Of a stretch of DNA of 32,000 nucleotides, positions 2,848 to 32,000 are shown in pieces. The notes under the pieces were generated by a model. That model did no database searches. It had not been told where the DNA came from and saw only the letters and a program-made list of their open reading frames with translations. Source of the DNA: Coprobacillaceae bacterium (lineage in GTDB: Bacteria; Bacillota_I; Bacilli_A; Erysipelotrichales; Coprobacillaceae); assembly GCA_963675515.1 (NCBI GenBank), contig OY776328.1:1230001-1262000 (forward strand), written 5' to 3'. The translations under genes and the position numbers were made by a program. How positions within the stretch are numbered: the stretch's first letter is position 1; every line of letters begins with the position of its first letter.

Positions 2848-2996
2848 GTGGCTAAGATAAATAGTTTAAGACCTTTTTGCAATAATGTGCAAAAAATATG
2901 ATCTATTGTTTGGGTCTTAACGAAGAATTGAATAATTATAAATAATGTTATATAAGTCTAGTTTCGTTTTTTACGAATATGAAAGGAGGAGATCGT

Positions 2997-5900
2997 ATGG
3001 GGCTATCAGATGCACATAAGGGGTATGAATACCAAGACTTACTAACCTCATATTTTATTATTGATGATCTTCTCAAATGCAATTCTTCAGAGTTTAAGGT
3101 TGATGTCAAGGAATACAATGATGATAAATTTGACGATCTTACCGTGATAAATAAAAACGGGGTAGTCAAACGACAGATCAAGTATAGTGATAATAAAACG
3201 GTAGCAAAAGATGACTTCTCATCAACAGATTATGACCTTGCACTAGATGTGTTATACAATTCGTGGGAAAAAGCAAAATTGGAACATGAAAGAGATGTAT
3301 CAATAAAAATACTTCTTGCATGGGATTACAATGATGATATTGATTTTTTAGAAGACCTTGGAACAAGCGATGATTTTACTTCCCCAAACGTGAAACAATA
3401 CATGATTAATATTGATAAAATATGGTTTGTGGATGAAGAAAGGCCCATAAGTTCTTGGAGACGGTTAAGAAAAAATGTGGAAAATATATCCAGGGAAAAG
3501 TTTAAAGAATTTCTCCAAGACTTGAAAGTAGAGCTATGTTTACCAAAAGCAAGTTTGGATATTGTAAATCAAGGTGAAATGGAAAGGATTACGGTTGAGT
3601 GTCTAAAGGATTTTGGTGTAGGTACGTATCCGAACAATGAAATATCCCCAGAAGGCGTCCTTCTGAAGTTGATGAACATAGTTAAGAATGCAAGGGCTAA
3701 CCAGAGAATACTAAAAACGGAACAAGTAGTTAGTAGCTTAGGGTTAGTTGTTGGCTATGGAAACATAGAGCAGCTATTTCCTATTGATTCAAGCTGTAAC
3801 ATTTATGACGAAAATATTTTTGATGATTTTTACTCAAATATTCGCGATAACAACAAGACTATATTAATTGGTGAGCCGGGATCAGGGAAATCTTGGTTTG
3901 TTACTAATTTTATCGAATATTTAAAATCAAAAAATATTCTATTTGCTAGGCATTATTGCTATACAAGTTTGGATGATATATTTTATTCTGGTAGAATCAC
4001 GTCCAATATTTTTATGGCAAATTTGATTAACGATATTATACTCGTCTGCCCTGAATTAAAGGACGTAAAGACATCGAGGTTTGGTGTTGACGAAAAGGAA
4101 CTTCAATCACTTATTGATGGAATTGATAAAGAGGTTATTTTGATAATAGACGGGCTTGATCATATCGAGCGAATCAAGTCATTAAATGAATCGGATGTGG
4201 TGGCAAATAAGACTGATATCATAGAGATAATAAAAAGAATAAATGTACCTTCAAAAGTGAAAATTGTTGTTGTATCACAGCCAGTTTCAGAAGTTTTAGA
4301 ATTGCGTAAGCATAATTATAAGCTCACTGAAATTGAAAACTGGGATGAGAAAATAATTGGTAAATACCTCGATAGTAGAAGTATAAGTGCTAATGTGGAA
4401 GTAAATGAAGTGTCATTAAGTAGTTATTTGTTTTCTAAGAGCAACGGGAATCCTTTGTACGTTGCATACTTGGTCAATGAGCTTTCAAAGTCGAGTGCTT
4501 TAGATTCATATGTGGATATCCTTGATTCAATTCCTAATTATAATGCTGGTTTAAAGGGTTACTATAACTATTTGTTGGAACAGATTGATGAAGATCATAA
4601 AGTCGTATATGCATTATCGGGAGCATCTTTTTATTTGAATATTGAAGAACTGATGGTGATAACAGGTTCATCGTATTATTATGTCGAAAAGAGGATAAAG
4701 ATACTTAGAAGCATACTTAGGCTTAGTACCGTAAACGGTGGATTCATCATTTATCATGAAAGTTTCCGACGATATATTCTAGAATTACTAAATTATAATG
4801 GACTGCCAATATTTGACAACGTATATAAAGACCTTATCGTGTGGCTTCAAGATACAGGTGTGTATAATAATATAAAGGCCTACAACAATTTGTTCCGACT
4901 GCTATACGAATCATGTCAGTATGACAGTCTATTGGAATATGCCAACATTGAGTTTTTAAGCGAAAGTTTATTTAGAGGATATGCTTTTGATGTAATAAAG
5001 AAAAATTCAGATTATATTGTGAAAGCTGCGACAAAGAAAAAGTCATTTTCTAAATTAGTAGAGCTTTCAGAGTTGTCCAATATTGTATTGAATGCAGAGT
5101 TTGACTTTGAGATATACGAGGAAAAGTTTTCAACGTGCATTGGTCAGCTACATGGTTTTCAGTGGTTAAGTGAAATGCTTATCTACGAAGGAAAAATGAG
5201 TATGTCCTTAGAGGAAGGACTAAGGGTTTGCTATTCCTGTTCACGTAATTCTGTCACTCCACCATGGAAAAATTATATACATGGTATGCTTGAGAGGAAT
5301 AAAACCTCAGATAATCACCACTATGATGAAATAAAAGAGCATCTAAGATATTATGTAGCATCCGCCATTGATATGGATAACAACCAGAATAGTGTTGTTC
5401 GTTATGTAACAGATAGTGGATACATAGAATACATGAAAATTGTAATGAACGAGTATGTCCATCGAGGCAGACTAGAGGAACTCCTTTCACTTCTTACAGA
5501 AATGGAATTAACTGATCAATGGAGTGGGGTTCTAGAGGGCAATGATAATGAGGGATTAAACGAAGAGTATATAAAAGATGTTTTAAAAACAATTAAAACT
5601 GCTGATAGTATTTATGGTGATACAGAAAGTAAAGTTAAATACTTGATTGCAAATGCTAATAAGATCTATGAAGCATATTCTTTTGATGTAGATGCACTGG
5701 TTGAAGAAATTACTAATTTAAGTTGGTTCCACAACTGGATAGTCTTTGTTTTTCAAAGTTGTGTGCTCGAGAAAAAAAGCAAAATCAAGGGTGATGATTT
5801 AGTAGAACTTTACTCGAATCTAAATCGAGTAACAGCGGTAGCTAACCATAGTATACGTACCATGGATTTATATGGACTAAGACAAGAAATTTATGATACT

Positions 5901-16409: not shown

Positions 16410-16889
16410 GTGATTTTTTACAATGTGGCTGTAAATAATATTAAAATCGCCATTAATACACTAGATAAATTGTCAGACAATGAAAAGTTTGATGAAATGG
16501 ATATAGATATTTCGATGGTAATTATTAACGCGATTAGTAGTATTAGCAATTATTATGAACGTATTGATAAGAGTGTACTTTCCCCAAATCAGGATTTATG
16601 GTTTAGAGCATATGCGTATGTTAACAATCAGGTAAAACATGATATAGCACTTGAAATAATACACTACCCGGTGTTTGGGAGTGCCTACCCAATGGGCTAT
16701 CCAATGATTTTTGATTCACCAGGAGTTTGTTGGAATGATTTTGTTGATAACGGTAGTATTAAGGCTAGAGGGAAACGAAACCATTATGATGCATGTCTAT
16801 GTGATGAAGATATCGCGTATACTTTCTCAAGAATATTAGAAATTATAGAGAGAGTTGAGTGTATAAAGCGGAGATCTTATATTGAGTGA
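16410..16889 (+). CDS. Hypothetical protein (159 aa) immediately upstream of hsdR
   Basis: GTG start after AGGGGGTGA. The stop lies 54 nt before the probable hsdR start, or overlaps the longest hsdR ORF by 4 nt. Confidence 0.5.
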   Translation: MIFYNVAVNNIKIAINTLDKLSDNEKFDEMDIDISMVIINAISSISNYYERIDKSVLSPNQDLWFRAYAYVNNQVKHDIALEIIHYPVFGSAYPMGYPMIFDSPGVCWNDFVDNGSIKARGKRNHYDACLCDEDIAYTFSRILEIIERVECIKRRSYIE

Positions 16890-16942
16890 ATTTGCCTTTT
16901 CTGTTCGAGTCGGCAACAGAGAAATTTAAGGGGGTGGGCGAA

Positions 16943-19900
16943 GTGAAAATTAATGAAGATACTTTAGAACAAGCGATCATTTCAGAACTTCAGGAAAAGG
17001 GTTATGAATATGTATATGGCCCAGATATCGCCCGAGATTATCATGAGGTAATTTTGGAGGATTGCTTTCTGGCTTCTATGTTAAATATAAATCCAGGTAT
17101 TACCCAAGAAATAATTTCTGAAACCTATAAAGAAATAATGAACCTAGGATTATTGAGGGTTGAGGATCTGAATGCATCATTTCATAAATATATTGTCGAA
17201 GGGGTGCCAATATCTTATCAGAAAGATGGAGAAAATCGTACATTCACTGTAAGGTTGATCGATTTTGAGAATGCGTCCGCAAATGATTTTAAAGTCATAA
17301 ATCAATTTACCGTCATCGAGTATAAGAATAAACGTCCGGATATTTTGGTGTTTATCAACGGGATTCCGATGGTTGTTTTTGAACTAAAAAATATGGGCAA
17401 CGACAGCACCACTGTTGAGCAGGCGTACAAGCAAGTCAAGAATTATCAGCTGGATATCCCATCCTTATTTCAATACAATGCTTTTAATGTCATCAGTGAT
17501 GGCATTGATACTAGGGTGGGGACCATTACGTCCGACTATACTAGATACATGGCGTGGAAGTCTGAAGACGGCGAGAAGCCAAATGAAAATGCAAGTGACT
17601 TCTTTACTGTGATGTTAAATGGTATGTTTTCAAAGGGACGGCTTCTTGACATTGTTCGAAACTTCATTGTGTTTCAGGATATCCAAGGGAAAACTGTAAA
17701 AATATTGGCGGGCTACCACCAGTATTTTGCGGTTCGCAAGGCTGTTGAAAGTACCAGAACGGCATTGAAAGAAAAAAGTCGTAAGGTTGGTGTTGTTTGG
17801 CATACTCAAGGGAGTGGGAAGAGTTTGTCAATGGTGTTCTATTCGGGTATTATTGTAAGTGATCCCGAATTTGAGAATCCGACTATCGTGGTGCTGACTG
17901 ATCGTAACGATCTTGATAATCAGCTTTTTGGAACTTTCAGTGCAAGTTCAAAATTGCTCTTGCGTCAAACGCCAAAACAAGCAGAGAGCCGAGATAACCT
18001 GAAGGAGCTTCTTAAAGTAAAAGCTGGAGGAATTGTTTTCACGACCATTCAGAAGTTTGAGGAAGCTGACGATATTATCAATGATCGTAGCAATATTATC
18101 TTCATGGCTGATGAGGCGCATCGCTCTCAGTATGGTACTGAAGCTAAATTTGATCGAGAAACTGGTGAATGGAAATACGGTATGGCAAAACATATGCGTG
18201 ATGCCCTTCCGAATGCGACATTCATTGGCTTTACCGGTACACCGATTGATATGAAAGATAAATCAACAATAGAGGTCTTTGGGAAATATATCGATATTTA
18301 CGATATGACTCAAGCTGTAGATGATGGTGCAACCGTACCGATTTACTATGAAAACAGAACGGCAAAGCTTAAACTGAATGATAATGTACTAAAGCAAATT
18401 GATCAAGAATACTCTGAGTTGGCTGGCGAGTCTACTGAAATTGAAATTGAGAAGTCAAAAATGGATCTATCAAGCATTGAGGCCGTTGTTGGCTCTTCTG
18501 AACGATTGAATATGTTGGCTGACGATATAATTGCCCATTATGAGGACCGTCAATATGTGTTGACTGGAAAAGCAATGATCGTCTGTATGACTCGTAAAAT
18601 TGCAATCAATTTGTACAAGACATTGTTGGTTAAACGCCCTGAATGGAAAGAAAAGGTCAAGGTCGTTCTCACATCGAGCAATCAAGACCCGGAAGATTGG
18701 CACGATATTATTGGAAACAAAGCCTATCGGGATGGGTTAATGATTGAGTTCAAGGATAACAGTAGTGAATTCAAAATCGCTATCGTTGTGGATATGTGGC
18801 TAACCGGATTCGATGTCCCGTCTATGGCGACAATGTACATTGATAAGCCGATGAAAGGACATAACCTGATGCAGGCAATCGCTCGTGTAAACAGGGTGTA
18901 CAAGGACAAAGAAGCGGGACTTATTGTAGAGTATATTGGTATGGCTGCGGAGCTGAAGTCGGCCTTGAATCAATATACAAAGCGTGATCAGGATAAGGTA
19001 CCTGATATTGGTATTGCATACTCTATCGCAATGGCGAAACTTGAAGTTATGCGCGATATGTTCTATGGTTTTAATTACGGTGACTTTTTTGGTGAATCTA
19101 ATGTTCAAAGGCTGAAAGTGATTGCGGAAGGCGTGGATTTCGCTCTTGCGTTTGAAGAAGATGAGTCTAAGGAATATATCAAGGAGGCAACGGCGTTGAG
19201 CCAAGCGGAGACACTTTGCCGAAGCTTAATGAGTGCTCACGATAAGAAAGAGATTGAGTTTTTCAAATGTGTAAAGGCTGGGATCTGTAAAATAGGGGGC
19301 AAAGGCAAGATAACTTCTAATGAAATTAATGCTCGTATTATGAAGATGCTTGAACAGGCCATTCAACAGGATGGCGTGGTAAATGTTTTTGAACAGTCTG
19401 GTCAGATAAATCCAGAAATCTCCCTATTGTCGGACGAATATATGGCACAAGTGCGTAAGATGAAGCACAAAAATATTGCAGCAGAACTATTACGAAGTCT
19501 ATTGGAAGATCATATCCGTTTTTTTTCAAGAACTGGTGTAGTAAAAGCTCAGCTATTTTCTGAAAAAATGCAAGATGTACTTAAACGGTACAATAATCGA
19601 ATGATAACCAGTGCGGAGGTCATTGAAGAACTATTGAACCTCTCAAAAGAGATTTCAGATGCTTATGCAGCAGGTGATGAAAAAGGATTATCCCACGAAG
19701 AATTAGCGTTTTATGATGCGCTTGTTGCTGATCCGGCAGTACTTCAAAATATGGAAGATGCCACATTGGTAGAAATGGCGCACGAGTTGACAACTCTAAT
19801 TCAGAAAAGTAGAACTGTGGATTGGGATAAGAAGCAGTCAGCACGAGCGTATATGAGGACTCAGATTAAACATTTGCTAAGAAAATACAAATATCCACCA

Positions 19901-19972
19901 GAACAAGCAAGCAATGCAATTGATACAGTTATAAAACAGGCTGAGTTAATGAGTGGAAATATGAAAATGTAA
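16943..19972 (+). CDS. hsdR: Type I restriction endonuclease R subunit, apparently intact
   Basis: The probable start is GTG 16943 after AAGGGGGTGG; the ORF is open from 16886. N-terminal PD-(D/E)xK: RPDILVFINGIPMVVFELKN. Helicase motif I: HTQGSGKSLSMVF. DEAH box: FMADEAHRSQYG. Motifs FIGFTGTP and QAIARVNR plus a C-terminal helical domain are present. Confidence 0.93.
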   Translation: MKINEDTLEQAIISELQEKGYEYVYGPDIARDYHEVILEDCFLASMLNINPGITQEIISETYKEIMNLGLLRVEDLNASFHKYIVEGVPISYQKDGENRTFTVRLIDFENASANDFKVINQFTVIEYKNKRPDILVFINGIPMVVFELKNMGNDSTTVEQAYKQVKNYQLDIPSLFQYNAFNVISDGIDTRVGTITSDYTRYMAWKSEDGEKPNENASDFFTVMLNGMFSKGRLLDIVRNFIVFQDIQGKTVKILAGYHQYFAVRKAVESTRTALKEKSRKVGVVWHTQGSGKSLSMVFYSGIIVSDPEFENPTIVVLTDRNDLDNQLFGTFSASSKLLLRQTPKQAESRDNLKELLKVKAGGIVFTTIQKFEEADDIINDRSNIIFMADEAHRSQYGTEAKFDRETGEWKYGMAKHMRDALPNATFIGFTGTPIDMKDKSTIEVFGKYIDIYDMTQAVDDGATVPIYYENRTAKLKLNDNVLKQIDQEYSELAGESTEIEIEKSKMDLSSIEAVVGSSERLNMLADDIIAHYEDRQYVLTGKAMIVCMTRKIAINLYKTLLVKRPEWKEKVKVVLTSSNQDPEDWHDIIGNKAYRDGLMIEFKDNSSEFKIAIVVDMWLTGFDVPSMATMYIDKPMKGHNLMQAIARVNRVYKDKEAGLIVEYIGMAAELKSALNQYTKRDQDKVPDIGIAYSIAMAKLEVMRDMFYGFNYGDFFGESNVQRLKVIAEGVDFALAFEEDESKEYIKEATALSQAETLCRSLMSAHDKKEIEFFKCVKAGICKIGGKGKITSNEINARIMKMLEQAIQQDGVVNVFEQSGQINPEISLLSDEYMAQVRKMKHKNIAAELLRSLLEDHIRFFSRTGVVKAQLFSEKMQDVLKRYNNRMITSAEVIEELLNLSKEISDAYAAGDEKGLSHEELAFYDALVADPAVLQNMEDATLVEMAHELTTLIQKSRTVDWDKKQSARAYMRTQIKHLLRKYKYPPEQASNAIDTVIKQAELMSGNMKM

Positions 19973-20212: not shown

Positions 20213-20881
20213 ATGTACAAGATAATGATAGTCGAAGATGACAATGTAATTTCTTTGATACTAGAAAATCATCTGGAAAAATGGGGGTATCAAGTTGAGT
20301 GTATCACGGATTTTAGCGAGGTTCTAAGTAATGTTACCGATTTTGCTCCGGATTTGGTTCTACTGGATATCCACTTGCCTTTATTCGATGGTTATCACTG
20401 GTGCCGGGAGATAAGGAATATATCCCGGATTCCGATAATCTTCATTTCATCAGCCAATGAAAATATGAATATCGTTATGGCAATGAATATGGGTGGTGAT
20501 GATTTTATCAGTAAGCCGTTCAATTTGAATGTGATAACTGCAAAAATTCAGGCAGTCTTAAGGAGAACTTACAGTTTTGCTCCGGATTTCCATTTACTTA
20601 CATATAATGATGTCATATTGGATGTTTCTTCTGCCACTATTTCTTTTAAGAATGCGGTCTTGGATCTTACTAAAAATGAAGTCAAAATTCTCGAGTTGAT
20701 GTTCCAGAAACCTGAAACGATTATGTCTCGCGAGGAAATTATGAACTTTCTTTGGGATGACCATCAGTTTGTCGACGATAATACTCTAAGCGTCAATGTT
20801 AATCGGTTACGAAAGAAACTTGAGACAATCGGTTTGGTTGATTTCATCAAGACAAAAAAAGGAATGGGGTATCTGATTTGA
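20213..20881 (+). CDS. OmpR-family response regulator, BceR-like
   Basis: Receiver domain (MIVEDD...LLDIHLP...SKPF) plus a winged-helix C-terminus (LTKNEVKILELM...VNVNRLRKKLE...GMGYLI). It is linked to an intramembrane-sensing kinase and a BceAB-type transporter. Confidence 0.9.
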   Translation: MYKIMIVEDDNVISLILENHLEKWGYQVECITDFSEVLSNVTDFAPDLVLLDIHLPLFDGYHWCREIRNISRIPIIFISSANENMNIVMAMNMGGDDFISKPFNLNVITAKIQAVLRRTYSFAPDFHLLTYNDVILDVSSATISFKNAVLDLTKNEVKILELMFQKPETIMSREEIMNFLWDDHQFVDDNTLSVNVNRLRKKLETIGLVDFIKTKKGMGYLI

Positions 20882-21852
20882 TTTTTAAATATCTCAACTA
20901 TCGAAAAGCTATTTACCTGATATTCATAAGTTTCATTGTTTTTGAAGTATTGGTACTCTCTCTCGTGCATATTGAGGCTTCGGTGATTGAGTACCTAGCT
21001 TTAATTTGGCTTTCCTTGGTAGTTGGTTTTGGAATCTTCGATTTCATGATTTTTAATAACCATTACCGAAATGTCATCAATTTAAAGAATTCAATCGAAG
21101 ATTCTATGGGATCAATGTTTAAAGCTAATAATGTCTTGGAACGGGAATATCATGATTTGATTAAGCAATTATACACTCTGAATTTAGAAATCAAACATAT
21201 CAATCTGGAAAAATATCAATCGATGATTAATTATTATACTATCTGGGTTCATCAGACTAAGACACCGATTTCAGCATTGAAGCTGTTGGTCCAGTCGGAG
21301 GGCAACAATCAGGAAATGGCGATGGAACTGTTAAAGATTGAACAATATGTTAATATGGTACTTCAGTATCTCAGACTTGATGATATAAATAATGACTTTT
21401 TATTTGAACATGTGTCACTAGACAAACTTGTCAGTGATGTGCTGAAAAAACAGGTGACCTTTTTTGCCCATGATAAAATCAACCTCGAATACAAAATTGA
21501 TGATACCAAAGTGTTGACTGATGAAAAATGGAGTTCTTTTGTGATTGAACAAGTCCTTTCCAATGCGATCAAGTATACCAAGCAAGGAACTATTTCGATT
21601 TACAATGATGCCACTAAACTCTATATACAGGATACCGGGGTAGGAATAAAGGCAGAGGATCTCCCGCGTGTCTTTGAACGGGGCTTTACCGGTTTTCAGG
21701 GTCGCAAAGACAAGAAAGCCAGCGGCATTGGATTATATCTAGTCAAACTGATTTTAGACAAACTGAATCAAGGCATTACGATTGAATCAATTGTAGGGAC
21801 TGGAACTACTGTCTGTATTGATTTCTACAAAAGAAACATCTTTATCGAGTAA
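20878..21852 (+). CDS. Intramembrane-sensing histidine kinase, BceS-like
   Basis: TTG start overlapping the regulator's stop. It has two N-terminal TM helices and no extracellular domain. H-box: WVHQTKTPISAL. N box: SNAIKYT. G boxes: DTGVGI and GIGLYLV. Confidence 0.88.
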   Translation: MIFKYLNYRKAIYLIFISFIVFEVLVLSLVHIEASVIEYLALIWLSLVVGFGIFDFMIFNNHYRNVINLKNSIEDSMGSMFKANNVLEREYHDLIKQLYTLNLEIKHINLEKYQSMINYYTIWVHQTKTPISALKLLVQSEGNNQEMAMELLKIEQYVNMVLQYLRLDDINNDFLFEHVSLDKLVSDVLKKQVTFFAHDKINLEYKIDDTKVLTDEKWSSFVIEQVLSNAIKYTKQGTISIYNDATKLYIQDTGVGIKAEDLPRVFERGFTGFQGRKDKKASGIGLYLVKLILDKLNQGITIESIVGTGTTVCIDFYKRNIFIE

Positions 21853-21872
21853 TCTTACAAAATTGTAAGATT
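21851..21872 (+). promoter_or_regulatory. Perfect inverted repeat AATCTTACAAAATTGTAAGATT; candidate BceR-type regulator binding site
   Basis: The core TTACA-AAAT-TGTAA fits, as I recall it, the TNACA-N4-TGTAA consensus described for BceR-like regulators. It lies about 85 nt upstream of the transporter ATG. Confidence 0.65.
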
Positions 21873-21879
21873 GGAAAGG

Positions 21880-21921
21880 GGAAATGTAAGGGGCATCTAT
21901 GGATGGACATTTCCTTTTTTT
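21880..21921 (+). terminator. Hairpin + T-run after the two-component genes
   Basis: GGAAATGT (21880-21887) pairs with ACATTTCC (21907-21914), followed by TTTTTTT. The 19-nt loop is long for a terminator. Confidence 0.45.
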
Positions 21922-21956
21922 GGTAAACTGATAGAGAAGGGAAGGTACTAATTATT

Positions 21957-22730
21957 ATGATATTATTAAAAGTAAACCAATTAAAGAAAGTTTATACAAC
22001 CCGTTTTTCAAAACAAAAAGTCGAGGCTTTGAAAAACGTTAATTTTGAAATTGAAGAAGGCGAATATGTCGCCATCATGGGCGAATCTGGCAGTGGAAAA
22101 ACAACCTTACTTAATATTCTGGCATCACTTGACAGGCCAACAAATGGTGAAGTACTTCTGGCTGGCCAAGATATCACCAAAATCAAGGATAAGGAAATTT
22201 CTTCATTTAGGAGACAGAACCTCGGATTTGTGTTCCAGGATTTCAATCTCCTTGATAATCTGTCGGTAGAAGATAATATCTATTTACCGTTAGTTCTCTC
22301 CAAAGAGAAATATCACTCTATGAATGAAAAATTGCTAGCTTTAGCACCAAAACTTGGAATTGCAGACTTGCTGGAAAAATATCCTTATGAGATCTCCGGT
22401 GGCCAGAAACAAAGGGTAGCTGTGGCAAGGGCATTGATCACTAGTCCCAAGCTTGTATTAGCAGATGAGCCAACTGGTGCCTTGGATTCCAAATCAACCG
22501 ACAATCTACTAGAAATCTTTGATGAAATCCATAAATCAAACCAGACAATTTTGATGGTTACACATTCAACCAAAGCCGCCAGCTATGCCAGCCGGGTATT
22601 GTTCATCAAGGATGGGGAAATCTATCATCAGCTCTATAAAGGAAATCTTTCAAACAATCAGATGTATCAGAAAATTTCGGATACCCTCAATATGATTGCT
22701 ACTGGAGGACGTCAAGATGGGATTCTTTAA
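21957..22730 (+). CDS. ABC transporter ATP-binding protein, BceA/MacB-type
   Basis: Walker A GESGSGKTT, Q-loop, signature SGGQKQRVAVARAL, Walker B LVLADEPTGALD, H-loop MVTHS. Confidence 0.93.
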   Translation: MILLKVNQLKKVYTTRFSKQKVEALKNVNFEIEEGEYVAIMGESGSGKTTLLNILASLDRPTNGEVLLAGQDITKIKDKEISSFRRQNLGFVFQDFNLLDNLSVEDNIYLPLVLSKEKYHSMNEKLLALAPKLGIADLLEKYPYEISGGQKQRVAVARALITSPKLVLADEPTGALDSKSTDNLLEIFDEIHKSNQTILMVTHSTKAASYASRVLFIKDGEIYHQLYKGNLSNNQMYQKISDTLNMIATGGRQDGIL

Positions 22731-24641
22731 TAAATTGGCCCGAACCAATATCTATAAGAATCGCAAGTTTTACTATCCTTATATTTTTTCAGCGATCTTT
22801 ACTAGCTGTCTTTTCTATATAGTTAGATCACTTTATTACAGTGAATCTCTAGCGCAGAGGCCTACAATAAGTACCTTCATGTCAATGGAGACTTATATAA
22901 TCATGATCTTCGCAACAATTTATCTGCTTTATGCTAATAGCTTTGTCCTAAAAAACCGAAAAAAAGAAATCAGTCTCTACAATATATTGGGAATGGAAAA
23001 AAGGCATGTAATGGTGATGATGTTGGTGGAAACAATGATTGTAGCCACGCTTTCAATTATCGCAGGAGTAATCATGGGAATCCTGTTTGGCCAGTTGATG
23101 GATCTGTTGATTACCAATCTGATCCATGCCCCGATTCAGTTTTCATTAACTATCTCATTTGAAGGTATTGGGGAAACAATACTTTTCTATTTGGCAATCT
23201 TTTTGGCCTCGATGGTTGTCAATCTATTAAGCGTCCAATTAACTAACCCGATTGAACTGCTAAAAGGCGGCAATATGGGAGAAAAAGAACCGAAGACCAA
23301 ATTAGTTACGACGATTTTCGGGCTACTTGCCCTTGGAACTGGATATTTCATCGCCCTAACCATAACTGATCCCGTTCTGGCTATCACCTTGTTTTTTGTA
23401 GCGGTGATTCTGGTGATGATCGGAACCTATTGTCTTTTCACAGCTGGTTCGATTACCCTGTTAAAACTGCTTCGGAAAAACAAACACTACTATTATCAGA
23501 CCCGTCATTTCACTGCGATTTCTGGATTGATTTATCGGATGAAGCAAAACGCAATCGGTCTTGCTAATATTTGCATTCTTTGTACCTGTGTTCTGGTAAC
23601 TTTTTCCTCGACTTTCTGTATGTATATCGGTATACAGGAAACCGTAGATGGCCAATGCCCGGCAGATCAAATCATGGTCGGTTATACTTCGGGCATAGAA
23701 AATAACTTTAAAGAAATCGCTTCAGCACATCTTAAAGACCTTGATTATCATGATTACTTCGCCTTTGATCTTTTGGATACTGTAGGTGTCTATAACGACG
23801 GTCATGTAATGTTGGAAACGACATCCAGCAATAGTTTCAATGATGTCGTCAATATCAATGCCCTTAGTCAGGATACTTTCAATCGGGGATTCAATCAGAA
23901 TATTGTATTGACCGCCAACCAGGTCTGGCTTTACACCAGTTTCGACTATGAAGAAAGCGACATCTGGATTGATGGGGTTGATTATCAGGTCACTGGAATG
24001 TTTAATGATCCTCGGATCATGGTCAACAATTACTATGCACCCCGAAGAATGGCAATAATTTTCGCCAATGACAAGATTGAGACAATCCCGGCCTTGACAG
24101 AGCTGGTTCCTGGTTATGCCATTGGCTTTGACAGCGATGATCCTAACCTCGAGACAACTGTTGATGCTATTGAGACTGAATTCTTCAACCAAGAAGGTTC
24201 ACGCTCGATTTTTCTTTAAATCATGAAGCTCAGTTGCAAGACAGTTATGAGGTGCTGGGCGGTTTGCTTTTCATCGGTATCTTCATGTCGGTGATGTTTT
24301 TGATGGCTGCGATATTGATTATCTACAACAAGCAACTCTCCGAAGGGTATGAGGATCAAAATAAATTTGAAATACTTCAGAACGTTGGAATGAGCCATAA
24401 GGAGGTCAAACAAGCAATAAGGAGCCAGGTATTGGTATTTTTCTTTTTGCCGCTAATAGTGGCGATTATCCATCTAGTCTTTGCCTTCCCGCTGATACTA
24501 AGGGTTCTAAAATTATTTCTACTTGCCAATATCAAAACCTACTTTACCGTCACTATTATCTCGGTAGTTATTTTGTCTGCAGTCTACTCATTTGTCTATC
24601 TTTTCACTGCCAAAACATATTATCAGATTGTCAAAAAATAA
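22717..24641 (+). pseudogene. BceB-type FtsX-family ABC permease, split by a frameshift near 24190-24235
   Basis: ATG 22717 after GGAGGA; product MGFFNKLARTNIYKNRKFYYPYI... The first frame stops at TAA 24217-24219. The final TM bundle continues in another frame, open from about 24180 (SLNHEAQLQDSYEVLGGLLFIGIFMSVMFLMAAILIIYNKQLSEGYEDQNKFEILQNVGM...). The combined length of about 640 aa is typical of BceB. Confidence 0.8.
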
Positions 24642-24705: not shown

Positions 24706-24974
24706 ATGATACTAAAGTACCGTTTTGCATATTTGCGCTGATATTGCACATGCTATAGATTATTCTAAGCAGGTATGAGGCACATGCAATTATGGCGGCT
24801 GTCGAATTCATCGGATTCACTTGCTGCCTTTTCTTTTATAGTAATCTTTGACTTTGCTATCACTCAATCTTATCGAACATTTTACCGCCAATTATAGTGG
24901 AGTCCGCAGCCGTTTATTCTCTTTTTTGGATATTTTCATATGCCGTCCATTCTTTTTACCTGATTGATAAACCT

Positions 24975-25549
24975 GAGTATTCCACAGAGCCACTCTGTCC
25001 GGAGTTGAGAGCCACTATGTCCGCCCCATAGAGCCATAAGTATAGTTTAATAATTGCAACTCATGGAATTCACACCTCTTCAGTAGTAAAATTGAAGCAT
25101 AGGCATTGTTCTACCTTGAACTACCAAGTAGGTGGTTTTTATGCAAGAAATCAAGATAATTCTTAAGAAACGTTTTAATAATGAAAGTCATCGATCCACC
25201 GCTTCATCGTTACAGGTATCAATAAATGCTGTCAGATATCCTTGAAATAATGGAGTCTAGGTGAAAAGGCACCCAACTATACTGTGCGGTCAATGTTCAC
25301 CAGAGTGGTGGTATCAACGCTTGGGTGAAGATACCGTTGCAGATGCGATATTTAATAGGATTATTAACGGTTCATTCAACATCTTGTTAGAAGGTTCATC
25401 GATGAGGTAAGAATATTCAAAAATCAAATGATTATCAATGAGCCAGTCATTGACTGGATCTCGTTAATGGACACCCCGGCTCTATAAAGAGGACAAAGGT
25501 GGATCTAAACGAATGGACAGGGAGGGGCTCCGCCACACCGGAATATTCA
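24975..25549 (+). mobile_element. IS21-family remnant with both ends but an internal deletion (istA N-terminal stub fused near the istB C-terminal stub)
   Basis: Ends are TGAGTATTCC... (24975) and ...GGAATATTCA (25549), with reiterated GAGCC/TGTCC subrepeats. The IstA-like stub is MQEIKIILKKRFNNESHRSTASSLQVSINAVRY (25141-). The IstB-like C-terminus is PEWWYQRLGEDTVADAIFNRIINGSFNILLEGSSMR* (about 25298-25410). Confidence 0.6.
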
Positions 25550-26129
25550 TTTTTCATGACTGACCAATTTTTATTATGTATACAGGTTCAACACCATAGT
25601 GTCGTCCTACCTAGACTTAAAGGGATTCATAACCATGAAATTGAAGAAAGATATTTTTTGCGAAGAACTTGTAGTTCAAAAAAACCGACATCCTTACTTT
25701 CCTTGACCCTATTATTTGTATGCCTACAAAAAAACAAAGCCGGGAGCAGTTAGCTTACCACCGGCCTCATATGTTCATATAGTGAAGAGATGACTACAAA
25801 CAGTAGTCAAAGCTACAGCAGTCTTTGCGAGTTTCCTCAAAGGAATCTCATATCTTGAACATCTCTTCAAAGTCATTATAACACAATCTATAGAAACGTA
25901 TTATGAAAGCAGGTAACATATCTCCTACTTTCATCAATACAAAAAATCATAGAAATATGATCTTTTAGCACATAAATATAATATCCAACTTGAGCCCATT
26001 ATACTACGGGCTCTTTTCAATTATATGCGTCGTATATTTTACGTTTACAATAATCTCATCAACATTATACTACTTGAATAGCGCCACCGTGCTATTTGAC
26101 ACATACCCTATTTTGCACGTATCTGTAGC

Positions 26130-26539
26130 ATGTGGTCATTCAAAACGCTTTTTGAATTTGATGTACTACAAACCACCTGGCACGAGTATCCCGGGGCACT
26201 CGACGTGTGGAAACGCAATTTCAAATTTGTGGAGCAACTCTTTGATTACGGCAGTGATGTACGCAAAATCATGTACACCACAAATGCAATCGAAGCTATC
26301 AATTCAAGCTTCAGGAAGGTCACTAAAAAAGGCACCTTCCCAAACGAAAACGCCTTATTCAAACTTTTATATTTGCGATGTGTTGAATTGGAAAATAAGT
26401 GGGACGGTGGAGTCATCCGTGGTTGGTCACAAGTGCTGAACCAACTGACTATAAATGGCTCGTTTTCGTCAAGACTGCAAAAATATTTGGCGCTAATAGT
26501 TCTTTGAAAAAATACTTACACACTTTTCTTGACAAACCC
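26130..26539 (+). pseudogene. IS256-family (mutator-type) transposase C-terminal fragment plus its terminal repeat
   Basis: ...YPGALDVWKRNFKFVEQLFDYGSDVRKIMYTTNAIEAINSSFRKVTKKGTFPNENALFKLLYL...KW... is the conserved IS256 C-terminal block. The N-terminal two thirds are missing. The element end ...CTTGACAAACCC abuts the IS21 end copy. Confidence 0.7.
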
Positions 26540-26648
26540 GAGCCAGTCAATTGACTGGCTCCCATTAACGAACAACCTGGCTCTATCGAGTGAAAATGGG
26601 TGGCTCTAAATTAGCGAACAAGGTGGCTCCGCAACACCGGAATATACA
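26540..26648 (+). repeat. Second copy of the ~110-bp IS21-family right end (solo end)
   Basis: GAGCCAGTCAATTGACTGG...GGCTCCGCAACACCGGAATATACA is a divergent copy (multiple substitutions and small indels) of 25440-25549, with the same block order. It ends 20 nt from the agrB-like stop codon. Confidence 0.65.
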
Positions 26649-26667: not shown

Positions 26668-27213
26668 TTACATTAGTATTGAATTCAATATTATTGCCAA
26701 TATAGATAAGCACGAACCGGTGGCAGCATATGCGAAATAGCTACTCTGTAAAGCAAACAATATGAAGATAGTTGAAGTGTTTATTGAATACAGAAACACA
26801 ATATTTCGAAGATCTTTTCTCTTAAAAGTCCTCTTATGAGAGTTAACATTTATGAGGACAAATAGAGAAAGAGCCAGTAAGTAGGCCAAGACATACATAA
26901 AACTTGAAGAGGTAATTGAACTTAGTATCATCCCAATCATCCAAATACCAACACCTAACAAATAACATTTTAACGGAGTTTTAGCATGATATCCTTCATT
27001 GTAGGTCCTGAAGACTAGAAAACATGCCAGCATTACAAGTGACTCGAAAAATCTACCGCTAATTACTGAAATAATTAAATAATTAACTGAATTTAAAAAA
27101 AATATTACTATGGCGGATAGAGCATATTCTATCTGCTGCTTTTTGTAATCGTCTTCAATACAATTTTTTTGGCATATCAATTTGGAAATAATGGATACAA
27201 ATTTGGTTAACAT
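26668..27213 (-). CDS. agrB: AgrB-family autoinducing-peptide processing membrane peptidase
   Basis: 181 aa polytopic membrane protein. FRTYNEGYHAKTPLKCYLLG aligns with the S. aureus AgrB catalytic segment RRHAHGAHAPSSFWCY, with R, G, H, A, C and Y conserved. Confidence 0.8.
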   Translation of the reverse strand: MLTKFVSIISKLICQKNCIEDDYKKQQIEYALSAIVIFFLNSVNYLIISVISGRFFESLVMLACFLVFRTYNEGYHAKTPLKCYLLGVGIWMIGMILSSITSSSFMYVLAYLLALSLFVLINVNSHKRTFKRKDLRNIVFLYSINTSTIFILFALQSSYFAYAATGSCLSILAIILNSILM

Positions 27214-27214
27214 G

Positions 27215-28552
27215 CTACACCTCGTTGTTATAAATATAGATCTTTTTGTCTTGAGGGTTTACCGTTGGAATCAAAATGGTTATTCTAAATGCCATGTCTG
27301 TATAGTTAACATTCATCAGTCCATCATATTTATTAACGATTTTCTTAATGTTTTTCAAACCGTAACCGTGATTAGTACCACCTTTTCTTGAAAGGATATT
27401 TGTGTTATCCAGCTTGATTTCACCATCGAATGTATTCTCACATATAATCCTAATCATTTTATTTGGTAGTAAGGTTATTGATAAGCTGATTCTTTTATCA
27501 TCAGTCTTCTGAACAGCCTCTAAGGCATTAGAAGTAATATTTCCAAATAAAGAGCATAGATCAAAGTTCTCGATATATGATATATCTGGAACTTCTAATT
27601 CAATGTTAACTGGAACGTTCAAGGAATTACTTTTGCTGATAAAGTCACTGATTGTTGAGTCGAGGTAAATGTTTCCTGTATTTACAATGATAATTTTATT
27701 ATCCAGATCATAACCGATATTCTTAATATAGTCACCCAATTGAGTATATGACTTATTTGAGACGAGGTGGCCAAGTGTGTTGAGATGGAATTTTATGTCA
27801 TGTTTCCAGCCTTTAAGGTGATTATATGACCTAATGGTTCTGTCATAGAGTTCAGTTTTTAGTTCATTTTCTTTTAATAAAATGTCATATTGGTATTTTC
27901 TTGTTAGCGTGGATATTAAAATTCTTGTTTGAATAAAAGATATTATATTTATTGAAAAAAGTGTTATTGCAACTACTAGCATATAAATATTGCTTGATCC
28001 TACTATAAGATAATGCCTTAAGATAAATATCATCGATATTATTGACGATAACGGAATAAGTATGTATACGTATATGTGTTTACTATTGTTTTCAAAACTA
28101 TCTTTGCTTAATTTTTTATTATATATAAATGAAGTTGAAAAAATTAATAGAAATATCAATATTCTAGTTACAAACATTAATGTAATTCTAATGTTGTTGT
28201 CGGAAACTAAGTGATCAACTTTGATATTTAGATAGGATGTGACGATTGATATGGTAAATAATTCAGATAGGTTAAAAATGAAAAATACCAGTAAGGGAAT
28301 TAATAATTTCAAGACATAATTATCTTTAAAAAATAAGAAACTGTATAAAATGTAAATCAAAAATATAACAATAGTTATATTAGAATTGTAGTTCCCTATT
28401 GTAAATATCGTTAGTATGAAAAATGCAACAGTAAAAGTCATCGCACTTATTATCTTTATGTTTATATCCTTGGTTATCAATGTTGAATTTATAGCATAGA
28501 GTGCAATAATTACATCTATACAATTAATAAATAATTCAAAAGCCAAATACAT
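27215..28552 (-). CDS. AgrC-like (HPK10) sensor histidine kinase
   Basis: About 200 aa of multiple TM helices. H-box: GWKHDIKFHLNTLGHL. N box: GNITSNALEA. G box: GYGLKNIKKIVNKYDG. It sits between a LytTR regulator gene and agrB. Confidence 0.85.
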   Translation of the reverse strand: MYLAFELFINCIDVIIALYAINSTLITKDINIKIISAMTFTVAFFILTIFTIGNYNSNITIVIFLIYILYSFLFFKDNYVLKLLIPLLVFFIFNLSELFTISIVTSYLNIKVDHLVSDNNIRITLMFVTRILIFLLIFSTSFIYNKKLSKDSFENNSKHIYVYILIPLSSIISMIFILRHYLIVGSSNIYMLVVAITLFSINIISFIQTRILISTLTRKYQYDILLKENELKTELYDRTIRSYNHLKGWKHDIKFHLNTLGHLVSNKSYTQLGDYIKNIGYDLDNKIIIVNTGNIYLDSTISDFISKSNSLNVPVNIELEVPDISYIENFDLCSLFGNITSNALEAVQKTDDKRISLSITLLPNKMIRIICENTFDGEIKLDNTNILSRKGGTNHGYGLKNIKKIVNKYDGLMNVNYTDMAFRITILIPTVNPQDKKIYIYNNEV

Positions 28553-28557
28553 GTGTT

Positions 28558-29265
28558 TTATCCTCCAAAAAGTTCTAGAAGTAGAACTTTTACTTCTTTC
28601 ATTTTTGATCTGCTAACCGGAATAAAATCGCCGTTGTTGAGTTGAATATATGGACCGTTAAAAGAACGGATCATATTCAGGTTTATAATATAAGATCTAT
28701 GAACTCTGTACATGTCATGGTTTGAGAGCAATATTTCCATTTGCGATATGGATATATTAATAATTTTTTCTTCACCAACCATGTGGAAAATGCATGAATG
28801 TTTATCGGACTCTATATATATTAAAGATCGGGTGTCAATAATGTAGTAGCCATTATACGCTTTGAAACTAATCATTCTTCCAACATCTTTTTTAATTTGC
28901 TGCTCGATTTTACATAATGTTTGAGTGAATCTGTTCGAATTTACTGGTTTCAATATGTAGTCTAATGCAGAAACTTCATAGCCGTTAATTGCGTATTGAT
29001 TATGCGATGTAATAAAACAAATAATGATATTTTTATTCATTTTTCTAAGTTGCTTTGCAAACTCAATTCCGGAAATTTCAGGGATTTCTATATCTATTAG
29101 CGCTACATCACAAGAAATGATATTTTCGGGAATATCATATGTTACTTTATTTGATATCAGATAATCCACGAAAATGTCAGTTTTTATGGACCAGTTTTTA
29201 ATGATTTTAGTTAATTTGTTAAGATCATTACTTGAATCCTCTGCTATAAAGAATTTTATTTTCAT
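28558..29265 (-). CDS. AgrA-like response regulator with LytTR DNA-binding domain
   Basis: Receiver domain (FIAEDS...ALIDIEIPEISG...LKP) plus LytTR (SFKAYNGYYIIDTRSLIYIESDKHSCIFH...MYRVHRSYIINLNMI). Confidence 0.9.
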   Translation of the reverse strand: MKIKFFIAEDSSNDLNKLTKIIKNWSIKTDIFVDYLISNKVTYDIPENIISCDVALIDIEIPEISGIEFAKQLRKMNKNIIICFITSHNQYAINGYEVSALDYILKPVNSNRFTQTLCKIEQQIKKDVGRMISFKAYNGYYIIDTRSLIYIESDKHSCIFHMVGEEKIINISISQMEILLSNHDMYRVHRSYIINLNMIRSFNGPYIQLNNGDFIPVSRSKMKEVKVLLLELFGG

Positions 29266-29651
29266 AAGTATATTAGCCCCCTCAAAATGCCATAAATATC
29301 ATAATAACAACTTAGATGATAAATACATAACTACATCTTTGATGTAAATATATTAGGTATTATATCACACTGTTGGTTTGAATGTAAGCTTAAGTACACA
29401 ATTGTATAGTGTACGAATAATGATTGTTAATAAATTTACAAAATGTAGTTTGATTTTAGAAAATTCAAATGTCAATTATATGATTAATTCGCTATTCTAT
29501 TAACTCCTAATATTGAAAGTGAGTAACTATTGAGTTTTTTTATGTCTGTGCCTTATTTACAAATCTTGAATTTATCGCATAGTTATTGTTTATGGAATAT
29601 ATTTTTCTTTAAGCGGAATATTGCTTTTGTAGGTCACACTAATACTTATTT

Positions 29652-29690
29652 CAGTTATCTGTGCAAAAATACTGCAGTTGATGCAAAAAG
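29652..29690 (+). promoter_or_regulatory. Imperfect direct repeat CAGTTatcTGTGCAAAAA / CAGTTgaTGCAAAAA; candidate LytTR (AgrA-type) binding boxes
   Basis: Two CAGTT-containing units lie 23 nt apart start to start, 60-95 nt upstream of the agrD-like ATG. AgrA boxes are 9-bp ACAGTTAAG-type direct repeats with 12-13 nt spacers. Confidence 0.45.
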
Positions 29691-29747
29691 ATGGATTAAA
29701 TAAATTAAAATTGTTTTAATTTCATCATAGTATAGAGGAGGGCATAT

Positions 29748-29867
29748 ATGAATTCGAGCAAATTGGTCAAGACGCTAGTAAAGATTTCTGATATTTCAAG
29801 CGGAATCACTTGTTGGGGAGTATTTTATCAGCCTAAATCTCCCAAAAAGATAAAAGTAAGTAGATAA
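29748..29867 (+). CDS. agrD: AgrD-like autoinducing-peptide precursor (39 aa); not in the ORF track
   Basis: ATG is 7 nt after AGAGGAGGG. Product MNSSKLVKTLVKISDISSGITCWGVFYQPKSPKKIKVSR*. It has an amphipathic leader, a single Cys followed by four residues (CWGVF, ring-sized), then YQPKSPK. This resembles the clostridial AgrD tail (C-LWFT-HQPEEPK in C. perfringens, from memory). Confidence 0.6.
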   Translation: MNSSKLVKTLVKISDISSGITCWGVFYQPKSPKKIKVSR

Positions 29868-29927: not shown

Positions 29928-30062
29928 GTGGAAGAAGCAAAAATGTTTAATGCTAACTTGGGTGTATGTGTTGCTTCACCTGAATTGGCTTTAACAGGTT
30001 ATATTGCTGGGATGGAAGCGTTAACTCTTATTTGTAGCTTTGCGGCTCTATTATTAGGGTAA
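29928..30062 (+). CDS. Small hydrophobic precursor peptide (44 aa), candidate substrate of the downstream radical-SAM enzyme; not in the ORF track
   Basis: GTG 29928 is 8 nt after AAAGGGGG. Product (M)EEAKMFNANLGVCVASPELALTGYIAGMEALTLICSFAALLLG*. It has a short polar leader, a hydrophobic core with 2 Cys and a C-terminal Gly, and lies about 200 nt upstream of the rSAM gene. Confidence 0.55.
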   Translation: MEEAKMFNANLGVCVASPELALTGYIAGMEALTLICSFAALLLG

Positions 30063-30081: not shown

Positions 30082-30127
30082 AAATAACGATAGAGAGTAT
30101 TTAAATAGCTGCTTTCTATCGTTATTT
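30082..30127 (+). terminator. 13-bp perfect hairpin between precursor gene and rSAM gene (attenuator/terminator candidate)
   Basis: AAATAACGATAGA (30082-30094) pairs with TCTATCGTTATTT (30115-30127) around a 20-nt loop. The stem is AT-rich and ends in TTATTT. Confidence 0.45.
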
Positions 30128-31679: not shown

Positions 31680-32000
31680 ATGATTAAATTAAATAATATA
31701 GAATTTAGTTACGGTAGGAATGTGGTATTAAGTGATTTTTCTTTGGAAATCCCAAAGAAAAATGTAGTAAGTATTTTGGGACATAATGGTGCGGGTAAGA
31801 CAACAATTGCAAAGTTGATAGCAGGATCACTATTGCCAGGGAAGGGAAGTGTGTATAATGGAATTGAACCTAAAAACATATTCTTTTTCTCGAACAAAGG
31901 AAATGTATACGCCAACATGTCTCTAGAAGAAAACATTAAATTTCTAAGAATGTTGAAAGGAATAAACAGAGATGACACAATAATCAATGAAAGAGTCGGG
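31680..32000 (+). CDS. ABC transporter ATP-binding protein, 5' part (runs off the window)
   Basis: ATG after AGGAGA. Product MIKLNNIEFSYGRNVVLSDFSLEIPKKNVVSILGHNGAGKTTIAKLIAG..., with a Walker A motif. The frame is open to the window end. Confidence 0.8.
   Translation, partial: MIKLNNIEFSYGRNVVLSDFSLEIPKKNVVSILGHNGAGKTTIAKLIAGSLLPGKGSVYNGIEPKNIFFFSNKGNVYANMSLEENIKFLRMLKGINRDDTIINERVG

Follow-up and report, generated by a model that had tools for sequence, protein, structure and literature searches.

A split agr-type quorum-sensing locus whose agrD probably heads a RiPP cargo operon

Introduction

The agr system is the model of peptide quorum sensing in Firmicutes, and its agrB and agrD genes are usually described as a fixed pair in an autoinduced operon. 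The present analysis concerns an agr-type locus of a Coprobacillaceae bacterium in which agrD is detached from agrB and stands on the opposite strand, ahead of predicted genes for a peptide made by ribosomes and modified after translation (RiPP). The locus lies in a stretch of 32,000 nucleotides (positions 1,230,001 to 1,262,000 of contig OY776328.1, assembly GCA_963675515.1), called the window throughout. An earlier annotation made from the letters of the window and its open reading frames (ORFs), referred to below as the original prediction, had drawn attention to this layout.

In Staphylococcus aureus, the P2 operon agrBDCA is faced by the divergent P3 promoter of RNAIII-hld. The window resembles this system in encoding an AgrB peptidase, an AgrD, an HPK10 kinase and a LytTR regulator, and also in having a divergent promoter pair that separates a quorum-sensing machinery arm from an effector arm, with a direct-repeat LytTR box, a putative one in the window, by the effector promoter. 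Unlike in S. aureus, the machinery genes follow the order agrA-agrC-agrB, and agrD belongs to the effector arm instead of the machinery arm. This effector consists of protein and peptide genes rather than a regulatory RNA (no Rfam match), and the putative box has a spacing of 20 bp instead of 21 bp. Staphylococcal AgrD tails are longer and acidic, whereas the AgrD tail in the window is short and basic.

Non-canonical gene orders are documented for Clostridioides difficile agr2 (agrACDB) and Enterococcus faecalis fsrABDC (PMC3754575, PMC2768977). The window shares with them a non-canonical order with regulator and kinase first, as well as a clostridial-type AgrD tail motif (aromatic-Q/E-P-K-x-P-K). 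However, agrD of those systems lies beside agrB on the same strand, whereas agrD of the window lies on the opposite strand, about 2.5 kb away, and heads another operon. The agrACDB order of C. difficile agr2 was also found in one of the contigs retrieved here (L009, described below). Another arrangement was observed at positions 2387-5823 of contig L004, beside a type IV secretion system coupling protein and probably within a conjugative element. It has an HTH_3 regulator, agrA and agrC on one strand, and a 51-amino acid (aa) AgrD (TIGR04223, 33.3 bits) overlapping agrB on the other; unlike in the window, agrD stays beside agrB.

The PlnABCD, Blp and Com systems of bacteriocin regulation have direct-repeat boxes upstream of bacteriocin operons. 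As in the window, a peptide pheromone, an HPK10 kinase and a LytTR regulator are encoded beside an antimicrobial-peptide-like cluster with an ABC exporter, under autoinduction. In contrast to the linear pheromones with double-glycine leaders of those systems, the pheromone of the window is predicted to be cyclised by AgrB, and its gene is placed with the structural gene, not with the kinase and regulator genes. The cargo behind agrD is comparable with the subtilosin A (AlbA) and sporulation killing factor (SkfB) systems, which likewise combine a radical-SAM (rSAM) enzyme carrying an N-terminal RRE and a C-terminal auxiliary-cluster domain, a short hydrophobic Cys-bearing precursor ending in Gly, and peptidase and ABC transporter genes in the cluster. 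It differs from them in a precursor family with just two Cys and no sequence relationship to theirs, and in a TldD/PmbA-like peptidase pair in place of AlbE/F or SkfC.

In Clostridium acetobutylicum, the LanM-like effector CA_C0082 is adjacent to, and controlled by, agr (PMC10301443), which is a further case of a RiPP-enzyme-type gene physically linked to agr. That enzyme gene lies downstream of a canonical agrBDCA and comes without a precursor, whereas the window appears to hold a full RiPP cassette behind agrD. Non-canonical agr orders and an agr-linked RiPP-type enzyme are already known, and a detached agrD leading cargo operons seems to be the undescribed part: a literature search of incomplete coverage returned no description of a divergent agrD heading variable cargo operons.

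Split architecture of the agr locus

The reading proposed here, with a probability of roughly 0.7, is that of a split agr locus in which agrD heads a RiPP cargo operon, AgrA activates this operon, and signal and cargo are thereby coupled. The features concerned are listed in Table 1. Instead of the canonical agrBDCA layout, agrA, agrC and agrB follow one another on the minus strand with intergenic gaps of 5 nt (agrA-agrC) and 1 nt (agrC-agrB), and agrD is encoded on the plus strand, with 482 bp between it and agrA on the upstream side of the latter. Gene order, strands and positions are those that the original prediction had given.

Table 1 Positions of the agr genes, the cargo genes and the associated elements in the window (Strand "." denotes a feature without assigned strand)
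Feature	Positions	Strand	Evidence
IS21-type terminal repeat region next to the agrB stop codon, a flank outside the agr system	26535-26648	.	71-92% identical to 25440-25549, after IstB remnant
agrB, membrane peptidase predicted to cleave and cyclise AgrD, 181 aa	26668-27213	-	Pfam AgrB, E = 2.7e-21, 4-179 of 185 model positions
agrC, polytopic HPK10-type sensor histidine kinase, 445 aa	27215-28552	-	HATPase_c_5, E = 4.2e-21 (AgrC/HPK10-type GHKL domain)
agrA, LytTR response regulator, 235 aa	28558-29265	-	Response_reg and LytTR
Divergent intergenic control region	29266-29747	.	agrD-proximal ~90 bp align in window, L001 and L002
Putative AgrA (LytTR) box, TGCAAAAA-N12-TGCAAAAA	29660-29689 (repeats at 29662-29669 and 29682-29689)	+	Repeat and conservation; binding inferred
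Putative extended -10 of the agrD promoter, TGTTTTAAT	29712-29720	+	Conserved block in three loci
agrD, autoinducing-peptide precursor, 39 aa	29748-29867	+	TIGR04223, 36.2 bits; orthologues in L001 and L002
RiPP precursor, 44 aa, GTG start, ribosome-binding site GGAAAGGGGG: MEEAKMFNANLGVCVASPELALTGYIAGMEALTLICSFAALLLG	29928-30062	+	52-55% identity to homologues upstream of orthologous rSAM
17-bp hairpin, candidate attenuator or partial terminator	30083-30126	+	Minimum free energy -26.4 kcal/mol, z = -3.8
Radical-SAM/SPASM peptide maturase with N-terminal PqqD-like (RRE) domain, 436 aa	30260-31570	+	Radical_SAM, PqqD, Fer4_12
ABC transporter ATPase, N-terminal 107 aa, running off the window	31680-32000	+	ABC_tran

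The products of the three minus-strand genes carry the features expected of their families. In an alignment of AgrB proteins down to 16-28% identity, R69, G74, H76 and C83 were invariant together with a handful of other positions, and the H-x6-C spacing of H76 and C83 is that of the residues which we take to be the catalytic pair of S. aureus AgrB, H77 and C84. A search of the AgrB profile against the PDB gave no match at E <= 1. In the kinase, a KHD H-box is found at His251, and the first 213 aa contain about 6-7 hydrophobic segments. The regulator has a candidate phospho-acceptor, Asp58, in the motif LIDIEIP, a role presumably corresponding to that of Asp59 in AgrA. All four agr ORFs of the window are intact and have good ribosome-binding sites. 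With an AgrB peptidase bearing the His/Cys pair, an AgrD precursor, an HPK10 kinase and a LytTR regulator, the locus is, at the sequence level, a complete agr-type peptide quorum-sensing system of split architecture.

The agrD product, MNSSKLVKTLVKISDISSGITCWGVFYQPKSPKKIKVSR, can be divided into a 21-aa leader (MNSSKLVKTLVKISDISSGIT), the ring CWGVF and the tail YQPKSPKKIKVSR; its ribosome-binding site AGAGGAGGG lies 5 nt ahead of the ATG. The peptide scored well above the cut-off of 19 bits (E = 4.7e-9) of TIGR04223, 'AgrD family cyclic lactone autoinducer peptide', a model of NCBIfam, the library by which NCBI names proteins, and the ORF is a called gene in a public protein collection. The AgrD-like character that the original prediction had assigned to this ORF from its ribosome-binding site and CWGVF ring is borne out by this curated model. 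Its further statement that no other AgrD-like gene is present agrees with a six-frame scan of the window for the motif Cys-x4-aromatic-Q/E-P-x-x-P, which returned only this ORF. Likewise, the tail had been described as basic rather than acidic, and tails of 9-13 aa with a computed net charge of +1 to +5 were found across the window and its two relatives described below; within the tail, only the Y-Q-P-x-x-P-K core was kept in their alignment.

By family membership and analogy, AgrB would cut AgrD after Phe by means of H76/C83 and form a five-membered CWGVF thiolactone. The exported peptide would then be trimmed, and a form without an N-terminal tail might undergo an S-to-N acyl shift to a homodetic cyclopeptide, as is described for clostridial autoinducing peptides (AIPs) that lose the whole leader (PMC8251862). 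The computed [M+H]+ values of the cyclic CWGVF peptide are 593.254 without tail, 694.302 with a T tail and 807.386 with an IT tail. A word-indexed search with the AgrD alignment matched the peptides of the window and of one relative (L001) only, and no match was found in the species-representative genome collection with either the degenerate TCWG(A/V)FYQP DNA pattern or the AgrB alignment. In the metagenome collection, the sole match of the degenerate pattern was a TCWGVFYQP at positions 508-533 of a freshwater contig (L003), which occurred by chance in a phage terminase-like ORF and was discarded as a false positive.

Relatives with the same split layout

An AgrB protein search yielded only a handful of relatives, two of which, both from other assemblies, could be read in their genomic context. 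The clade examined here accordingly comprises three loci, namely the window, an ENA contig (L001) and a Logan contig (L002). The L001 AgrB is 78% identical to that of the window, and the order of regulator, kinase and AgrB is the same, although the kinase gene is interrupted by an insertion sequence (IS) of the IS3 family. L002 has this gene order as well, with identities of 67% for AgrB, 62% over the full length for the kinase and 62% for the regulator; the agrA product of the window is 62-64% identical to the regulators of the two relatives. Both encode a divergent AgrD 280-300 bp upstream of agrA, followed after 44-95 nt by co-oriented genes. That of L001 is a 37-43-aa ORF about 280 bp upstream of the regulator gene and ends in ...VSEIASNITCWGAFYQPKVPKQKYY, and that of L002 ends in ...ISEIANGITCWGAFYQPDAPKKN. 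Both pass TIGR04223 (41.3 bits for L001 and 30.5 bits for L002). The core ITCWG(A/V)FYQP is common to the three peptides and reads ITCWGAFYQP in both relatives.

The original prediction had left two alternatives, a relocated pheromone gene heading an operon, or an agrD lost to an IS with the 39-aa ORF being something else. The curated AgrD model and the orthologues in the same divergent position in L001 and L002 favour the former and contradict the latter. It had also proposed to look in relatives for an agrD downstream of agrB; in L001, the 190 nt that separate agrB from an IS66 remnant, the element next to it, contained nothing AgrD-like, and the L002 contig ends 41 nt after agrB. Because the same layout recurs in L001 and L002, the split arrangement is read as a matter of design, not as transposon damage.

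The genes behind agrD vary by locus. In all three clade loci, agrD directly precedes co-oriented genes. The cargo of L001 (region 4124-5790) consists of a 348-aa protein followed by a 151-aa lipoprotein-like protein, and that of L002 (region 1-2139) of 260-aa and 198-aa proteins together with a homologue (58%) of the L001 lipoprotein. The first cargo genes of L001 and L002 are unrelated to each other. The 348-aa, 260-aa and 198-aa proteins are hydrophobic with signal-peptide-like N-termini, and the cargo proteins of L001 and L002 had no Pfam or NCBIfam match. Judged from these three loci, relocation of agrD is a property of the agr clade and not of the RiPP. A toxin-plus-immunity pair, which the L001 and L002 cargo layout recalls, would be a speculative reading.

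The source genome of the window encodes a second AgrB (P0003), which is 67% identical to the AgrB of the window and 88% identical to that of L002. Because of the latter value, the split layout, which marks a small agr clade, is probably present twice in this genome, and the P0003 locus would be a fourth member of the clade.

The RiPP cassette behind agrD

The agrD gene is separated from the 44-aa precursor gene by 60 nt without significant RNA structure. Matches of the rSAM protein to SPASM maturases extended to about residue 410. Among named peptide maturases AlbA scored best (2.4e-27); NirJ2, a putative haem d1 enzyme, was marginally higher (5.6e-28), and both were below the cut-off. By the curated models, the protein reached 95.5 bits against a cut-off of 850 for AlbA and 79.9 against 300 for SkfB, which leaves it outside the sactipeptide equivalogs. 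The closest solved structures were SkfB (7e-19), PqqE (1.9e-6) and 5wgg (2.5e-5), the last of which we take to be CteB. The precursor had no Pfam or NCBIfam match. The cassette combines an RRE-containing rSAM enzyme with a C-terminal Cys-rich domain and an adjoining conserved short precursor, the components of an rSAM RiPP system. On these sequence features it is a genuine sactisynthase-like RiPP system, and it is not filed as a sactipeptide since all scores fall far below the family cut-offs.

A plasmid DNA search led to a homologous cassette on Bacillus cereus plasmid NZ_CP095379 (L008, 2700-8025). It comprises genes for an ABC ATPase and a membrane protein, a pair of TldD-related peptidase genes, a tandem array of three identical 44-aa ORFs and the gene of a 440-aa rSAM protein. 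The annotation names the precursors 'hypothetical protein' and the rSAM enzyme 'PqqD family peptide modification chaperone'. The 44-aa peptide, MEEAKLFKANLGVCAFQPELAVIGFTEGLAALTAVCGAIAIVAG, is 55% identical to the window precursor over its full length, and the rSAM proteins are 54% identical over 436 residues. Across the cassettes of the B. cereus group (L008 and L012-L015), one to three tandem identical precursor copies were present. These cassettes have a divergent LysR gene and no agr, and a GntR gene and an ABC-2 transporter set, possibly for immunity, lie downstream.

A second homologous cassette was found on a JGI contig (L009, 5488-13617), where genes for an ABC ATPase, a membrane protein, a pair of TldD/PmbA-like peptidases, two identical copies of the 44-aa precursor and an rSAM enzyme are directly followed by a co-directional agrA-agrC-agrD-agrB module. 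Its rSAM enzyme and ABC ATPase are 57% and 55% identical to those of the window. The AgrD of this module has 48 aa, a TIGR04223 score of 20.5 bits and the ring CTFIF; the regulator is only 31% identical to that of the window, and the two AgrB proteins have no significant pairwise similarity. Since the L009 agr module differs in lineage from that of the window, the RiPP cassette is, by these comparisons, paired with agr modules of two different lineages, and the pairing has arisen at least twice. A decayed cassette in Bacillus clarus (L010, 8063-10579) has an rSAM protein cut to 366 aa with loss of the C-terminal Cys-rich region, and upstream of its precursor gene the other strand carries a 96-174-aa C-terminal remnant of an HPK10 kinase. 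The association of agr with the cassette is considered meaningful because of the agrD-led operons in the clade, the L009 pairing and the B. clarus kinase remnant.

The members of the precursor family are always 44 aa long, end in Gly and have two Cys that are invariant, and those outside the window are 52-55% identical to the window member. An exhaustive search of 1.84 billion representative proteins with the precursor profile returned three cluster representatives at 50% identity, all of 44 aa. The RiPP operon assumed in the original prediction is thus strengthened by a precursor family conserved next to orthologous rSAM genes in the B. cereus group and in L009. The peptide antibiotic that it named as the product would be a possibility. 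That the 44-aa ORF merely encodes a small membrane protein is contradicted by the tandem identical copies, the invariant Cys and the fixed place before an RRE-rSAM gene.

Hairpins after the structural gene are typical of bacteriocin and RiPP operons, and a hairpin occupies the same position between the precursor gene or genes and the rSAM gene in L008, L009 and L010, with a different sequence. In the window, the hairpin would provide a high ratio of precursor to enzyme. The cargo would then be a sactisynthase-type RiPP cassette made up of the precursor, the hairpin, the rSAM/SPASM-RRE maturase, the ABC exporter and genes past the window.

Control region and proposed circuit

Conservation of the agrA-agrD intergenic regions in the three-locus alignment was concentrated in about 90 bp before agrD. 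The agrA-proximal part of the window region holds about 165 bp (29284-29448) that have no counterpart in L001 or L002 and no Rfam match. LytTR activators such as AgrA, ComE and PlnC recognise direct repeats of about 9 bp with a spacer of about 12 bp, abutting a weak -35. In the conserved part, an 8-bp direct repeat was spotted by eye and from the alignment, and was not reported by a generic repeat finder. The exact repeat occurs once in the window, and its (G/A)TGC half-sites are kept in register with a 20-bp spacing (TGC-N17-TGC) in the window, L001 and L002. About 22 bp downstream of the half-sites, a TG(T/C)TT(T/A)AATTT block is conserved in all three loci. It contains the putative extended -10 of agrD, which a generic sigma-70 scan did not call. 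Upstream of the agrACB operon, ordinary sigma-70-like candidates were found, with no obvious second box. Scanning the window for Rfam families and tRNAs gave no match, and no RNAIII-like or other known RNA was found in the intergenic region.

From these elements, AgrC would sense the peptide and phosphorylate AgrA at Asp58. Phosphorylated AgrA would bind the paired TGC half-sites by the extended -10 and activate the agrD-cargo transcript, as the conservation suggests. The transcript would start near 29727 and carry agrD and the precursor gene, and a fraction of it would continue past the hairpin to the rSAM and ABC genes. Positive feedback would run through the signal gene and the supply of substrate, with a one-to-one coupling of cargo output and signal output. 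That signal and cargo are induced together by AgrA is inferred because of the gene spacing, the lack of a terminator and the conserved promoter block.

Alternative explanations

Several points weigh against the coupled signal and cargo operon. Co-transcription and AgrA dependence are predictions from the sequence. When mismatches are allowed, repeats of the half-site type are no rarer in the window than expected by chance, and the spacing of the half-sites is 20 bp versus the 21 bp typical of AgrA, ComE and PlnC boxes. About 25 nt ahead of the rSAM gene there is a sigma-70-like TTGGTG-17-TATAAT, a possible separate promoter for the enzymes. The B. cereus cassette, with its LysR-type neighbour and without agr, indicates that control by agr is not obligatory. 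The AgrD tail is short and basic and lacks the acidic residues that matter for recognition by S. aureus AgrB. Furthermore, the clade rests on three examined loci, and the locus lies amid IS debris, while the IS-split kinase of L001 implies that some clade members are decaying.

Some of these observations would fit a stand-alone agrD beside which the cassette has landed in an IS-rich island, with its own promoter or promoters and no regulatory coupling. The promoter-like sequence before the rSAM gene, the strong hairpin after the precursor gene, the IS3, IS1595, IS21 and IS256 debris of the island and the occurrence of the same cassette without agr in B. cereus are all consistent with mere adjacency. 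We regard it as unlikely, however, given the short and unstructured gap between agrD and the precursor gene, the co-oriented genes that directly follow agrD in all three clade loci, and the occurrence of the cassette together with an unrelated agr module (L009) and with a kinase remnant (B. clarus), which would be hard to explain without coupling. A decaying and non-functional agr remnant, in which the IS beside agrB and a shorter AgrB C-terminus have inactivated signal production, is quite improbable. The IS21 end 19 nt from the agrB stop codon, an AgrB C-terminus 6-7 aa shorter than in relatives and the broken kinase of L001 point in that direction, but the four agr ORFs are intact with good ribosome-binding sites, and AgrB is covered almost entirely by its Pfam model and retains the catalytic-type residues.

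The two remaining explanations concern the 39-aa peptide itself, and both were rejected. Modification of AgrD by the rSAM enzyme, which would yield a chemically new AIP, for example one with a thioether in place of the thiolactone, could be imagined from the placement of both genes in the same putative operon and the single Cys of AgrD. It is very improbable, as no rSAM gene lies beside the orthologous AgrDs of L001 and L002 (the latter contig ending 41 nt after agrB), and in each cassette a conserved 44-aa family is present as the enzyme's own substrate. The abutting IS end and the basic, non-acidic tail are what would be expected if an original agrD downstream of agrB had been destroyed by the IS and the 39-aa ORF encoded an unrelated peptide, be it a bacteriocin or a second RiPP precursor. 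That explanation is hardly credible in view of the AgrD model score, the orthologous AgrDs in the same divergent position in L001 and L002, the lack of an agrD after agrB in L001, and the homologous rSAM cassettes elsewhere that come without such a peptide.

Implications of the split layout

If agrD is indeed the leader of a coupled cargo operon, several consequences follow. A detached agrD at the head of interchangeable operons changes the wiring of the feedback, since the signal, but neither the receptor nor the processing machinery, would have a visible tie to the output. For activating a silent gene cluster, the predicted cyclic CWGVF peptide provides a simple handle, and the very rare rSAM-modified peptide family gives access to a possible new RiPP class that brings its own inducer. 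The occurrence of the cassette with two unrelated agr modules also suggests selection for density-dependent peptide production.

A broader and tentative proposal, which we consider possible but doubtful, is that the agr clade represents a portable signal-plus-promoter unit with interchangeable cargo, that the two systems within the source genome may cross-talk, and that a new RiPP family was recruited by agr at least twice. The AgrA-dependent promoter and agrD would then form the unit, and every cargo transcript would also make the pheromone. The cargo would be a new two-Cys rSAM peptide, possibly head-to-tail-cyclised, in the window, and sets of secreted proteins and lipoproteins in the relatives. 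The ring is CWGAF in L002, whose AgrB is 88% identical to P0003, and CWGVF in the window, and the two systems of the source genome might cross-inhibit each other, as the specificity groups of S. aureus agr do, but within one cell. The cassette of 44-aa precursor, rSAM enzyme and TldD pair would constitute the new RiPP family.

Surroundings of the locus

The region at 24960-26648, next to agrB, consists of nested IS debris. An IS21-type terminal sequence of about 100 nt is present in two copies, at 25440-25549 and 26541-26648, the latter ending 19 nt from the agrB stop codon, in line with the IS21 end that had been placed about 20 nt after it. A C-terminal remnant of IstB (IS21) occupies 25261-25410. 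Between the two IS21-type copies lies the frameshifted C-terminus of an IS256-family transposase (25990-26507), with a transposase remnant matched at 26130-26507.

Further upstream in the window, a BceRS/BceAB-like module for sensing of and resistance to peptide antibiotics was found at 20213-24641, with genes for an OmpR-type regulator and a kinase as well as for an ABC ATPase and an FtsX-type permease. A frameshift or stop at about 24219-24234 divides the permease into ORFs of 507 aa and 135 aa, and a pseudogene or a sequencing error is possible. A 1940-aa ORF at 2979-8801, whose sole match was to an NPHP3_N/STAND-type NTPase (E = 1.3e-6), may encode a defence-island protein; its island also contains the R subunit of a type I restriction system (16886-19972) and IS3 and IS1595 transposases.

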